Below are positions 408 to 8,459 of a stretch of DNA of 64,000 nucleotides, piece after piece. The first letter of the stretch is position 1. Each line of letters begins with the position of its first letter. The position numbers were made by a program, and so were the translations under genes. Source of the stretch: Promethearchaeota archaeon (GTDB taxonomy: Archaea; Asgardarchaeota; Lokiarchaeia; Sigyniarchaeales; SOKP01); NCBI GenBank assembly GCA_048940445.1, contig JBHLON010000005.1, positions 59,125 through 123,124 of the forward strand, written 5' to 3'. A model generated the notes under the pieces. It saw nothing but the letters and a program-made list of their open reading frames with translations, was not told where the DNA came from and did no database searches.

Positions 408-1088
408 TTATTTATCTAAATTTGTTGAAATTAAGTTTAAAGTCCACTTCTTTATCTGCATAAGATTTTTTAACAATCCTGCTACAAGATTTTCAGGAAA
501 CGGTTTTTCTTGGTCAAGATTTTGGACTATGGTCATCCACTTATTTAGGGCTAATTGTACTAGACTCGCACCATCGGCTTCCATAAATATAGGTATTACC
601 GCAGCACTCTCTCTAGCATCCCCAATAGAGAAATAAATCTTTCTATTCATATCTTTTAACATTACTAAATTTGCGCATTCATCCAATTTACGTTCTACTA
701 AAATCATTTTAAGTATTTGAGTTTGAATATCTTTATTCTTTTTTATGAATTGTTCTTTTCTGTTGATTATAAGAGGTTGTATTTCCGTTACAAGTTTATC
801 TCCAGTGGAATCCTTTGGAAAAAATTTAGTCAATTTGATTACATCGTCTAAGACTTCAATATTAATGAATTTTTTAGTGTTAGAATAAAAAATTGTTTGA
901 AATCCTCCTTTATCTTCACTAGGAGAGAGTTTAATGAAAATATTTCTCATTGTGATTGAATTACAACAATGATATGCTAATTCGAATAATTCTTTTGAAG
1001 TTAATGGGTTATATGGTATTTGAATATCTTTGAAGAGCCATTGTGAAGATATAACATTATTAAACTGATTTAAAAGTCGATTCTCCAT
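408..1088 (-). CDS. Hypothetical protein, 226 aa, downstream of secS
   Basis: Long ORF with ATG start; no motif recognised. Confidence 0.75.
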   Translation of the reverse strand: MENRLLNQFNNVISSQWLFKDIQIPYNPLTSKELFELAYHCCNSITMRNIFIKLSPSEDKGGFQTIFYSNTKKFINIEVLDDVIKLTKFFPKDSTGDKLVTEIQPLIINRKEQFIKKNKDIQTQILKMILVERKLDECANLVMLKDMNRKIYFSIGDARESAAVIPIFMEADGASLVQLALNKWMTIVQNLDQEKPFPENLVAGLLKNLMQIKKWTLNLISTNLDK

Positions 1089-1184: not shown

Positions 1185-2570
1185 TTACTTCTGTACAATT
1201 TGATTATAGGCTTTTTCGAATCTATTAACAGCAAGAATTATATCCCTTGAAGTGGTACCTATAGCAGCATTCATTATAATATAGGGAATTGTATAGTTTG
1301 AACAACAAGTTCCAAATGCACTTTTTTTAGGATTATATACTCTTGGACCAGTAACCCTTAAGTTATATAAAGCTCCTCCTAATTCTGATAACTGATCTTC
1401 TCTTAAATTTTTTAATGTCATTGCTACTGCAACTGGATTAAATACATCTAAAATTCTCTCATTTATCTTTTTAGCGACATTCTCAATTTTTTGTTGTAAT
1501 AATTTTCGATTTTTCTGTTGAGTAGTTATTAATTTCTGATATCCTTTCAGCCCCAAAGAAAGAATTGAAATCAAAATGTTAACAATTGGAGTTGCTGAAG
1601 CGCGTCCAGCATAAGCTTGACTTATTTTGATAATCTTTTCTTTATGTGGTGAAGCAATTATCGCCCCACCAATAGGAGTAAGTACATTTTTATCAGTTGA
1701 TTGAATTATCGCATCTATTCTTCCCGCATCTATTCCTGAGCGAATCAATTTCATCCATTCTGGGCTCTGAACTCCATATGCGTTTATTACAATATGAACA
1801 AGATCATTTTCCTTGGCAAATTTACTGATTTCTTTAATATCATCATTTTCACGAGGAGGAAAGAAACTTGTAGAAGAAATAATCGCAAAGCAATCTTTAT
1901 CTAATTTTAATTTAAGATTTTCAATTGGAATTCGAACAGCATCTCCAAAAATTTTACCCTCAACAATTTTTGGCTTCACACCTACTAAATCGATGCCCTT
2001 TAAAAGAGATTTATGGTCAATTTGGGGTACTAAGACTGTTCTTTTAGATATTAATGCCTTATTATTCCAATTAGGCCTTAGAGCGCTAAGACACAAAGCT
2101 AATGACATTCCAGTACATAATGGTACCACAATTGCACTTTCAATATTTGGTATACCAAATTTCCTCATAAAGTCTCGTGTTAAATAATTTGTTAATTCAT
2201 ACATAATAGATCCACCAGGGGCTTTTGGTTGAGGAGCTGTTAAAAACCCACTTCTACCTACACCATGACAAAAGCCTTGTGAAGTTTTAATATGTAATTT
2301 AGACGCTATCCTAGCTTCTCGTTCTCCTACTCGTGCTGCTTTAATGTCCTTATCTGTATCCATATTTGAAAGTGTTTGTAAGAGATATGCGATTTGTTCA
2401 TCTGTCCAATGTTCTTTTGGAACACTTTTCTGTTCAAATAGAATTTTAATCGGTTTAAGAAATTCTTTTAATACTAATTGTCCTCTATTCAATATATTTT
2501 CAGGAATAGATGCAGTTTTAAAATATTCAATAATTTTATTAAACTCAATCAATTTAAACACTTTTATCAT
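1185..2570 (-). CDS. spcS: O-phosphoseryl-tRNA(Sec) selenium transferase (SepSecS)
   Basis: GEREARI, HGVGRSG, QPKAPG, TGMSL, DHKS, NAYG, QSTDKN (PLP Lys) and YAGRAS motifs; adjacent to tRNA-Sec. Confidence 0.97.
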   Translation of the reverse strand: MIKVFKLIEFNKIIEYFKTASIPENILNRGQLVLKEFLKPIKILFEQKSVPKEHWTDEQIAYLLQTLSNMDTDKDIKAARVGEREARIASKLHIKTSQGFCHGVGRSGFLTAPQPKAPGGSIMYELTNYLTRDFMRKFGIPNIESAIVVPLCTGMSLALCLSALRPNWNNKALISKRTVLVPQIDHKSLLKGIDLVGVKPKIVEGKIFGDAVRIPIENLKLKLDKDCFAIISSTSFFPPRENDDIKEISKFAKENDLVHIVINAYGVQSPEWMKLIRSGIDAGRIDAIIQSTDKNVLTPIGGAIIASPHKEKIIKISQAYAGRASATPIVNILISILSLGLKGYQKLITTQQKNRKLLQQKIENVAKKINERILDVFNPVAVAMTLKNLREDQLSELGGALYNLRVTGPRVYNPKKSAFGTCCSNYTIPYIIMNAAIGTTSRDIILAVNRFEKAYNQIVQK

Positions 2571-2577
2571 AAAGATA

Positions 2578-2734
2578 TGGCGGCCCTTGAGGAGATTTTC
2601 TAAGATTGGTTAATTTCCAACCATTATCGAACTCCTATCCCTCCGCAGGATAACTAGGTTTGAAGCCTAGCGTCAGAGACCACTTATCGTTGGAGATCGA
2701 TATGATCTCAAAACAATTCCGACCGTCAAGGGCC
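2578..2734 (-). tRNA. selC: tRNA-Sec(UCA), 9/4 fold, encoded CCA, two introns (2684-2717 D-arm; ~2596-2625 T-loop)
   Basis: 9-bp acceptor GGCCCTTGA/TCAAGGGCC, G73+CCA; CTAGG-CT-TCA-AA-CCTAG anticodon arm; long variable arm TATCC..GGATA; 4-bp T stem GGAG/CTCC; splicing at a bulge-helix-bulge gives 7-bp D stem GTCGGAG-TGGT-CTCTGAC. Confidence 0.95.
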
Positions 2735-2939
2735 ATTGAAAATTAATATGATAATTAGTTGATTTAAATTGAATTTTATTATTATACTTTATTCTTTATT
2801 TAAACTAAATTATTTACGGCAGAAATTCTATACCTCTGAAATTAACTTCGGATTTATATAATATTAATCCAATGATTAAGTTTTTAAGTTTACTTCTTTG
2901 AGTAGTAATTATAAAAAATTAGATCAAAATCAAAATTGA

Positions 2940-7016: not shown

Positions 7017-8459
7017 TTGATTGACGTTAAGAATTTAATTCCGATTCATATAGGGCTATATGGACACATAGATAGTGGTAAAACAGCTATAGCTGCAGTT
7101 CTTAGTGAAATTATCTCAACTGCAGGTATTGACGCTCATCCGCAAAGTAAAGAAAGGGGTATAACTATTGATTTAGGTTTTACAAGTTTCGTGTTAGAAA
7201 AGTTTATCATAACTTTAGTTGATGCACCTGGTCATGCAGACTTAATCAAAGTAAGTGCTTCTTCAGTAGAAATAATTGATTGTGCGCTGGTAGTTTTAGA
7301 TATAAATAAAGGTCCACAAGTTCAAACTGGCGAACATTTAATTATGATAGAATCATTAAATATTAAGGATATTATAGTTGTGCTTAATAAGACAGATTTA
7401 TTTAAAGGTGATATTAATCAAGAGATTCAAAAAACAAGAAAATTTTTTCAATCTACCTCTTTTGGAGCCGAAGTGCCAATATTTACCGTGTCTGCGAAAA
7501 AAAAGACAGGCTTTCAAGAATTGAAAGATGGAATTTTAAAAACAGTAAAAAATCTCACGATAAATAGAGAATTCGAAGGAAGTCTTATATTACCAATCGA
7601 TCATCATTTTTTAATAAAAGGGAAAGGAACAATAATAACGGGTACAATTTTGCAGGGGAAACTAAATTTAAATTGCACATTATATATATTACCTGTTGGG
7701 ATCTCTGGAAAAGTTAAATCTATTCAAATATTCCATCAAACAGTTGATAATGCCAAAGCAGGTGACAGGGTTGGAATCAATATTAAAGGTATTGACGTCA
7801 AGAAGGTTTTTAGAGGTTGCTATGCAACAGATAATAAAGAACTTTTTGAATACTCTGATTTAATTGAAGTATATGTGACAAAAAATAGATTATTTAAAGC
7901 AGAAACCCATTTTGGAACCCAAGTGCACGCAACTATTGGAATGTTTACAACAACAGGTTATATTTATCCTTTTTATGAATTAAATGGGAAAAAAATTCAA
8001 ATGAATGTAGACAAAGAGTTAACAAATTTTAAAGCTTTTATATGGTTCAATGAGAACGTTTTATTTAGGAAAGAAAAATTTACAATATTGTTAACCCGCT
8101 TAGATTTACCTCCAATAACTTTAAGGGTATTAGGTTCAGCTAAATTGATTAATATATTCAATGATTTACCATTAATTTATAGATATAAAACAAAACGAGG
8201 AATAATTCAAAATCCATTACATCCGCAAGGTATAATTTGCACTGGTTTAGCCCAAAGTTTAATTGGTGCTAAAAAGATCGTGGGGCGTAAATTAGAGAAA
8301 CCCTTTACTAAAATAATTAGTCCGTTTGGAACCAAGGGATCTGTAATTGTGGGAATTGAAAAAGATCACGCTCGTGTGAAGAAAGGTGAAGATGTCATTT
8401 TGAAGGAACTTAGAAGCTTTAAATTAAAATCTAAAAAAGATTTAAATTCTCAAAATTAA
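7017..8459 (+). CDS. selB: Selenocysteine-specific elongation factor (archaeal SelB/eEFSec type)
   Basis: GHIDSGKT, PQSKERGITIDLGF, DAPGH, QTGEH, NKTD, DHHF; short C-terminal domain with ISPFGTKG and no bacterial winged-helix repeats. Confidence 0.95.
   Translation: MIDVKNLIPIHIGLYGHIDSGKTAIAAVLSEIISTAGIDAHPQSKERGITIDLGFTSFVLEKFIITLVDAPGHADLIKVSASSVEIIDCALVVLDINKGPQVQTGEHLIMIESLNIKDIIVVLNKTDLFKGDINQEIQKTRKFFQSTSFGAEVPIFTVSAKKKTGFQELKDGILKTVKNLTINREFEGSLILPIDHHFLIKGKGTIITGTILQGKLNLNCTLYILPVGISGKVKSIQIFHQTVDNAKAGDRVGINIKGIDVKKVFRGCYATDNKELFEYSDLIEVYVTKNRLFKAETHFGTQVHATIGMFTTTGYIYPFYELNGKKIQMNVDKELTNFKAFIWFNENVLFRKEKFTILLTRLDLPPITLRVLGSAKLINIFNDLPLIYRYKTKRGIIQNPLHPQGIICTGLAQSLIGAKKIVGRKLEKPFTKIISPFGTKGSVIVGIEKDHARVKKGEDVILKELRSFKLKSKKDLNSQN

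Follow-up and report, generated by a model that had tools for sequence, protein, structure and literature searches.

Does the gene for selenocysteine tRNA (tRNA-Sec) form the 5′ part of the mRNA for SepSecS, an enzyme that acts on this tRNA? The question is raised by a 64,000-nt stretch of a Promethearchaeota genome (contig JBHLON010000005.1), which we call the window. An earlier note on this DNA had placed a tRNA whose CCA ends at 2578 just ahead of an ATG at 2570, both on the minus strand and separated by a 7-nt spacer (TATCTTT). Inspection of the sequence confirmed these positions: the spacer occupies 2577-2571, and the ATG (2570-2568) is in frame with secS. The note had proposed that tRNA and enzyme share one transcript, from which processing would release a near-leaderless secS mRNA. 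We find that the first part of this proposal is very likely the best reading of the locus and that the second part needs revision, as translation most likely starts further downstream.

A tRNA-Sec gene with two predicted introns precedes secS

The features of the junction are as follows.

2578 to 2734, minus strand: tRNA-Sec gene of 157 nt with two introns, recognised from sequence, fold and ortholog alignment
2684 to 2717, minus strand: D-arm intron, 34 nt, placed by alignment to intron-less orthologs and by a bulge-helix-bulge motif
2596 to 2625, minus strand: T-loop intron, 30 nt, at position 59/60, placed by alignment to intron-less orthologs
2553 to 2577, minus strand: spacer of 25 nt between the CCA and the conserved start, probably the secS leader, containing ATG 2570-2568, an in-frame GTG at 2561-2559 and the motif AAGTG
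1185 to 2552, minus strand: coding region of secS (SepSecS) read from the conserved TTG, with the reading frame open up to ATG 2570

The open reading frame (ORF) from ATG 2570 to 1185 comprises 461 codons. In profile searches, its product matches Pfam PF05889 at 388.3 bits (cut-off, 21.1) and NCBIfam TIGR03531 at 481.9 bits (cut-off, 224.85), and it resembles solved SepSecS structures, including that of M. maripaludis (PDB 2Z67; E value, 9.4e-110). By these full-length matches above curated cut-offs, the ORF is beyond doubt SepSecS. The genomes in which its relatives occur are labelled Candidatus Hermodarchaeota or Promethearchaeota. The window genome has a G+C content of 30% and is 93% complete.

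The tRNA gene was harder to recognise. ARAGORN made no call on the window copy, and the Rfam tRNA-Sec model RF01852 gave only a misaligned match of 23.6 bits (gathering score, 47), since two introns interrupt the gene. As these detectors failed, we judged its identity through intron-less orthologs. Six such genes, found at the same locus in relatives, score 57.7-63.9 bits against RF01852, above the same gathering score, and ARAGORN calls these orthologs tRNA-SeC with anticodon tca. The exons of the window copy equal them except for a few substitutions. The window tRNA folds into a 9/4 cloverleaf with two insertions (z, −4.1) and has a perfect 9-bp acceptor stem, a 4-bp T stem, a 6-bp anticodon stem, a 6-bp variable arm and a 7-nt anticodon loop (CTTCAAA) with the anticodon TCA at 2663-2661. 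The discriminator G (G73) lies at 2581 and is followed by an encoded CCA at 2580-2578. The UCA anticodon, G73, the 9-bp acceptor stem, the 4-bp T stem and the long variable arm are features of archaeal tRNA-Sec.

Removing the D-arm intron yields a 7-bp D stem with a 4-nt loop, matching the D arms of the intron-less orthologs, and removing the T-loop intron restores a 7-nt T loop. Both insertions lie in the setting of an archaeal bulge-helix-bulge, which in its canonical form has splice sites in two 3-nt bulges around a 4-bp helix, and are predicted to be spliced. The D-arm motif has a 4/4 central helix with two outer and three inner pairs. The T-loop motif is relaxed in the window, with a 3/4 central helix and a G-A mismatch, and is 4/4 in a relative (L010). 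Judged from this predicted splicing, the intron-free RNA is an archaeal tRNA-Sec of the 9/4 type, in which the D arm has a 7-bp stem and a 4-nt loop.

Intron content differs among the species of the family to which the window genome belongs. Some tRNA-Sec genes contain no intron (93 nt), some contain the D-arm intron only (about 123-125 nt), some contain both the D-arm and the T-loop intron (about 153-158 nt), and others combine a canonical 37/38 anticodon-loop intron with the T-loop intron (150-151 nt). This variation within one family implies that introns were gained or lost repeatedly in a tRNA gene that is essential and present in a single copy. Multi-intron tRNAs have been reported to be the rule in some Asgard lineages (PMC11291895), and a 31-nt T-loop intron has been published for the tRNA-Sec of Lokiarchaeum (PMC4989117); in the literature searched, we found neither a D-arm intron nor a canonical 37/38 intron described in tRNA-Sec. 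These genes thus correct the statement that archaeal tRNA-Sec has only one intron position. Across the whole window genome, ARAGORN detected only 21 tRNA genes, several of them doubtful; most tRNAs of this organism are probably hidden by non-canonical introns, as in other Asgard lineages.

The encoded CCA is a second departure from published descriptions. Every tRNA-Sec gene found in the family encodes G-CCA, as do those of two other Asgard lineages (G038 and G046), while the tRNA-Sec of one further genome (G032) lacks an encoded CCA and has a T-run after G73. Among the other 21 tRNAs called by ARAGORN in the window genome, at most one encodes CCA. According to a 2022 review, CCA is not encoded by the tRNA-Sec genes of archaea, a statement that the genes described here correct; no encoded CCA in an archaeal tRNA-Sec was found in the literature searched.

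The gene order is conserved across one family

The earlier note had suggested comparing the tRNA-secS spacing in other Asgard genomes, and this comparison bears out the adjacency. We surveyed 47 genomes covering the window genus and seven further genera of its family. The tRNA-Sec gene lies upstream of secS on the same strand in 44 of the 47, representing at least eight genera, and at every same-genus locus that includes the 5′ end (22/22) it lies directly upstream. Since the adjacency recurs in so many genomes, this conservation of gene order indicates that it is not due to chance. The spacer from the CCA to the conserved start measures 21-42 nt in 39 of the 44 genomes and roughly 150-240 nt in the other five. 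In the remaining three family genomes (both genomes of one genus and one genome of another), no tRNA was found within about 0.3-0.5 kb upstream of secS. The linkage is thus dispensable, having been loosened or lost several times.

Outside the family, the head-to-tail junction was not seen, by inspection and Rfam, at any of 27 Asgard loci (seven from two sister families and 20 from other families and classes). At these 27 loci and the three family exceptions, Rfam detected no tRNA-Sec beside secS at E ≤ 0.1, a search that intron-rich copies could escape. In two complete genomes of a sister family, tRNA-Sec and secS are 0.3 and 1.4 Mb apart. As the junction is kept within the family and unseen outside it, its distribution points to one evolutionary invention of this family. 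No tRNA-Sec-SepSecS junction was found in the literature searched.

Whole-genome scans of two genomes from two other Asgard classes located an intron-bearing tRNA-Sec about 0.8-1 kb past the 3′ end of secS, in convergent orientation. Clustering of Sec genes therefore extends beyond this family, in those classes without the head-to-tail junction.

Translation of secS most likely starts at a conserved TTG

The earlier note had taken ATG 2570 as the secS start, which would leave a 7-nt spacer, no Shine-Dalgarno site and a near-leaderless mRNA. Comparison with relatives does not bear this out. The codon at the position of window TTG 2552-2550, the seventh codon counted from ATG 2570, is ATG, GTG or TTG in all 47 family genomes. 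In an automatic register of 48 loci, this position reads ATG at 23, TTG at 14 and GTG at 7, and the remaining four are register slips with an ATG beside the position. Conservation of the SepSecS protein begins sharply at the same point. In two close relatives, G244 and G116 (SepSecS 78-79% identical), TAG-CTG stands just upstream of the TTG, at the place of window GTG 2561; because it excludes any earlier start, the TTG is the only possible one in these genomes. The in-frame GTG 2561 was also considered as a conserved start and was rejected: frame-breaking indels separate it from the gene in three lineages, it is absent in another, and in G244 and G116 its counterpart is a CTG after the TAG.

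The conserved start is accompanied by a candidate ribosome-binding signal. Most relatives have GTGAT at −9/−10 of this start; its window counterpart is weakened to AAGTGTT, with a Shine-Dalgarno-like AAGTG ahead of TTG 2552. No 16S rRNA was found in the window's own assembly, and the Shine-Dalgarno register was set by the 3′ end of the 16S rRNA of a congener (...GGATCACCTCCT). Across the window genome, GGAGG, GAGGT, AGGTG, GGTGA and GTGAT are 4-6-fold enriched upstream of starts in the register predicted by this 16S rRNA. GTGAT start positions peak at −11 to −8, and the frequency of G at −9/−10 of starts rises from 0.09 to 0.26. The genome-wide start contexts contain no leaderless signature. 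By these start contexts, leaders with Shine-Dalgarno signals are the general rule in the window organism; that of secS conforms to it, and the conserved GTGAT ahead of secS is better read as a Shine-Dalgarno element. The claim that the junction has no such site is thus not supported.

A start at ATG 2570, with a cut at the tRNA 3′ end leaving a leader of 7-10 nt without a Shine-Dalgarno element and near-leaderless translation, is in our judgment unlikely. Such a start would be in frame and would use the strongest start codon available; the Shine-Dalgarno-like element before TTG 2552 is weaker than those of relatives, and co-transcription with the tRNA would be supported just as it is for a start at the TTG. 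Against it, ATG 2570 is unique to the window genome: the most similar spacer (L003) reads AAA there, and G244 and G116 have a stop in that stretch. The six residues that it would add are not conserved, the genome-wide G peak is of the Shine-Dalgarno type, and a 7-10-nt leader would be neither truly leaderless nor led by a Shine-Dalgarno element. With a degraded Shine-Dalgarno-like element and only a weak TTG start in the window, the lineage-specific ATG could nevertheless have taken over in this one species.

We conclude that TTG 2552, the conserved codon, is most likely the start of secS and that its leader is short and ordinary. This start lies 25 nt past the CCA, further than the few nucleotides expected of a near-leaderless mRNA, and in relatives a Shine-Dalgarno-like element precedes it. 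The earlier note had itself named a start codon well downstream, with its own leader, as the observation that would speak against its reading; the TTG is such a codon, though only 18 nt downstream. For annotators, the practical consequence is that relatives should be compared when the secS start is chosen and that the tRNA-Sec genes of these genomes are invisible to standard tools.

One predicted transcript for tRNA-Sec and secS

In the window, tRNA-Sec and secS are on the same strand with no terminator between them and no room for a promoter in the 25-nt spacer, the layout of a tRNA-led operon. The argument about promoter room rests on distance. In archaea, the TATA box usually lies about 26 nt before the transcription start site. 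Where relatives have a tRNA free of introns, its last ~28 nt form a G+C-rich stem without A/T-rich sequence. A TATA box about 26 nt before a start site that still precedes the Shine-Dalgarno-like element would fall in this stem, and there is therefore no room for a secS promoter that would leave this element on the mRNA. As to termination, the longest T run in the window spacer is 3, and thus the spacer contains no oligo-T terminator. Most other tRNA genes that ARAGORN finds in the window genome are followed by T-runs and do not encode CCA. These observations, together with the conserved spacing, make a tRNA-Sec-secS co-transcript very likely the best reading; of the earlier proposal, the single transcript is thus supported by spacing and conservation, and the near-leaderless product is not.

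A promoter for the predicted unit may be marked by the following feature.

2764 to 2776, minus strand: conserved A/T-rich motif (AAATTCAATTTAA) 42 nt before the tRNA gene, a candidate BRE/TATA promoter element

Many relatives have related A/T-rich motifs 16-61 nt upstream of the tRNA. A loose pattern of the motif occurs 373 times in the window genome and is thus unspecific, and we regard AAATTCAATTTAA as a candidate promoter of the tRNA-secS unit.

From these positions and their conservation, we infer the following sequence of events. One promoter upstream of 2734 would drive a precursor RNA that consists of the two-intron tRNA-Sec, the 25-nt spacer and secS, possibly continuing into the Sel_Asgard gene described below. 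Maturation of the tRNA would involve RNase P as well as the splicing endonuclease and its ligase. RNase Z, or a different 3′ nuclease, would cleave behind the tRNA and so free a secS mRNA that is not leaderless, having some 25-28 nt ahead of its start codon; translation would begin at TTG 2552, aided by the weak Shine-Dalgarno-like element. The tRNA substrate and its enzyme would thereby be tied to one promoter, which might also couple their dosage. RNase Z is encoded in the window genome (contig 21, 27020-27988; 329.6 bits). An encoded CCA may hinder this enzyme in some organisms. Taken jointly, a tRNA-led selenocysteine operon with co-transcription, a processed short leader and a TTG 2552 start is the reading we favor, with somewhat better than even confidence.

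Spacers differ among relatives in their T content. A run of five or more T occurs in 10 of 38 measured relative spacers and could terminate part of the transcripts. Among six close relatives from the clade nearest to the window genome, most have a five-T run right after the CCA and one (L098) has three T; in the window and in L003, the five-T run has been lost (TCTTT). Read-through from the tRNA into secS may thus differ between species.

Could secS instead have its own promoter, in the 3′ part of the T-loop intron or in an A/T tract of the spacer, so that tRNA and mRNA would be separate primary transcripts? Many spacers contain A/T tracts upstream of the start, the genomes with long spacers or no upstream tRNA demonstrate that secS can have a promoter of its own, and the A/T-rich TTAGAAAA in the T-loop intron, centred about 30 nt before ATG 2570, offers a possible site. 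However, the tracts in relatives are centred only about 16-21 nt before the start, which under the usual archaeal spacing would place the transcription start site inside the coding region, where residue 70 is the first in-frame Met to follow. A+T makes up about 80% of the intergenic DNA, such that A/T tracts are expected by composition, and the intron-less relatives offer no A/T-rich sequence within the tRNA end. TTAGAAAA itself is a poor TATA box and is not conserved, as L010 has TTCGAATA in its place. We therefore consider separate promoters distinctly improbable.

We give still less credence to the possibility that the tight junction arose incidentally, from a single ancestral rearrangement in a compact genome, with no regulatory meaning beyond Sec gene clustering: its single phylogenetic origin, followed by secondary losses, and the convergent tRNA-Sec genes near secS in other classes, which suggest a general clustering tendency, would fit, but the spacer has been held at 21-42 nt across at least seven genera despite an almost complete turnover of its sequence, and GCCA is kept in every tRNA-Sec copy found in the family.

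Feedback by SepSecS bound to the tRNA, which the earlier note had raised as a possibility, is speculative. Least probable, in our view, is an autoregulatory switch in the unprocessed precursor: SepSecS, or else PSTK or SerRS, would bind to tRNA-Sec while it is still joined via the encoded CCA to the secS leader and, with the Shine-Dalgarno-like element and start codon only 15-25 nt away, would block the ribosome or delay 3′ cleavage. The secS leader and first codons have no significant predicted structure (z, −0.32), and a structured regulatory leader therefore gains no support. Were such a switch to exist, enzyme synthesis would be tuned to the pool of free tRNA-Sec, and the locus would parallel, in an archaeon, the thrS operator of E. 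coli, with a genuine tRNA that can be released in the operator's place.

Known tRNA-led operons and neighbouring Sec genes

Operons led by tRNA genes are already known, and the tRNA-Sec-secS pair would add a member. The closest likeness is to pylTSBCD of Methanosarcinales, in which an archaeal recoding-tRNA gene also lies right before, and on the same strand as, the gene of an enzyme acting on the tRNA. There, the pyl cluster begins with pylT, which is preceded by the pyl promoter (PMC2933860; PMC12626013); a description of pylT and pylS as cotranscribed was not found in the literature searched. The two arrangements differ in that the pyl enzyme is an aminoacyl-tRNA synthetase, whereas SepSecS is a tRNA-dependent amino-acid-converting enzyme, and in that the tRNA-Sec of the family carries up to two introns to be spliced from what, in the window, would be a common transcript. 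The tufB operon (thrU-tyrU-glyT-thrT-tufB) likewise opens with tRNA genes, four in number, followed by a translation-factor mRNA that needs release by tRNA processing (PMC6134099). It differs in being bacterial, with four unrelated tRNAs, no pairing of substrate and enzyme, and no introns.

Bacterial sel gene clusters that include selC, such as selDABC of Eubacterium acidaminophilum, also group the tRNA-Sec gene with the Sec synthase gene and other sel genes. Their enzymes are of the bacterial SelA type, and selC there follows the protein genes and does not lead them.

The junction described here would be a clean, family-wide example, in about 40 related species, of a modifying enzyme whose mRNA is headed by the gene of its own tRNA substrate, in hosts that are the closest archaeal relatives of eukaryotes. 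RNase P, the removal of up to two introns, 3′ cleavage and translation would all have to act on a single RNA. If co-transcription is confirmed, the locus would provide a simple natural system for how archaeal tRNA processing makes mRNA 5′ ends.

Two further genes of the window belong with the Sec genes.

408 to 1088, minus strand: Sel_Asgard gene, encoding a 226-aa "putative selenocysteine system protein" (NCBIfam NF045535), 96 nt downstream of secS
7017 to 8459, plus strand: SelB/EFsec-like elongation factor (TIGR00475, 233 bits, just below the cut-off of 242)

The Sel_Asgard ORF, read from 1088 to 408, scores 225.8 bits against NF045535 (cut-off, 132) and has no match in Pfam. A homolog follows secS at all family loci that reach far enough downstream and at six loci of two other families, and the gene may be the third of the tRNA-Sec-secS unit. 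Its AlphaFold model (pLDDT, 94.8) consists of an N-terminal alpha/beta domain and a C-terminal four-helix bundle; structure searches returned weak Foldseek matches and, for residues 116-226, generic four-helix bundles only from the PDB. In another class, a weak Sel_Asgard match (24% identity) lies between secS and the convergent tRNA-Sec.

Between tRNA-Sec and the SelB/EFsec-like gene lie two NUDIX genes, an ABC permease gene and a 289-aa ORF with no NCBIfam match. The SelB/EFsec-like gene is 4.3 kb from tRNA-Sec on the opposite strand, similar to Lokiarchaeum, where EFsec lies a few kb from tRNAsec, also on the opposite strand (PMC4989117). The Lokiarchaeum tRNA-Sec (Mariotti et al. 2016, PMC4989117) resembles the window copy in its 9/4 structure, 7-bp D stem and T-loop intron of ~30 nt. 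In that genome, SecS and tRNAsec were on different contigs (PMC4989117); in the window, by comparison, secS abuts the tRNA, which has an additional D-arm intron and an encoded CCA.
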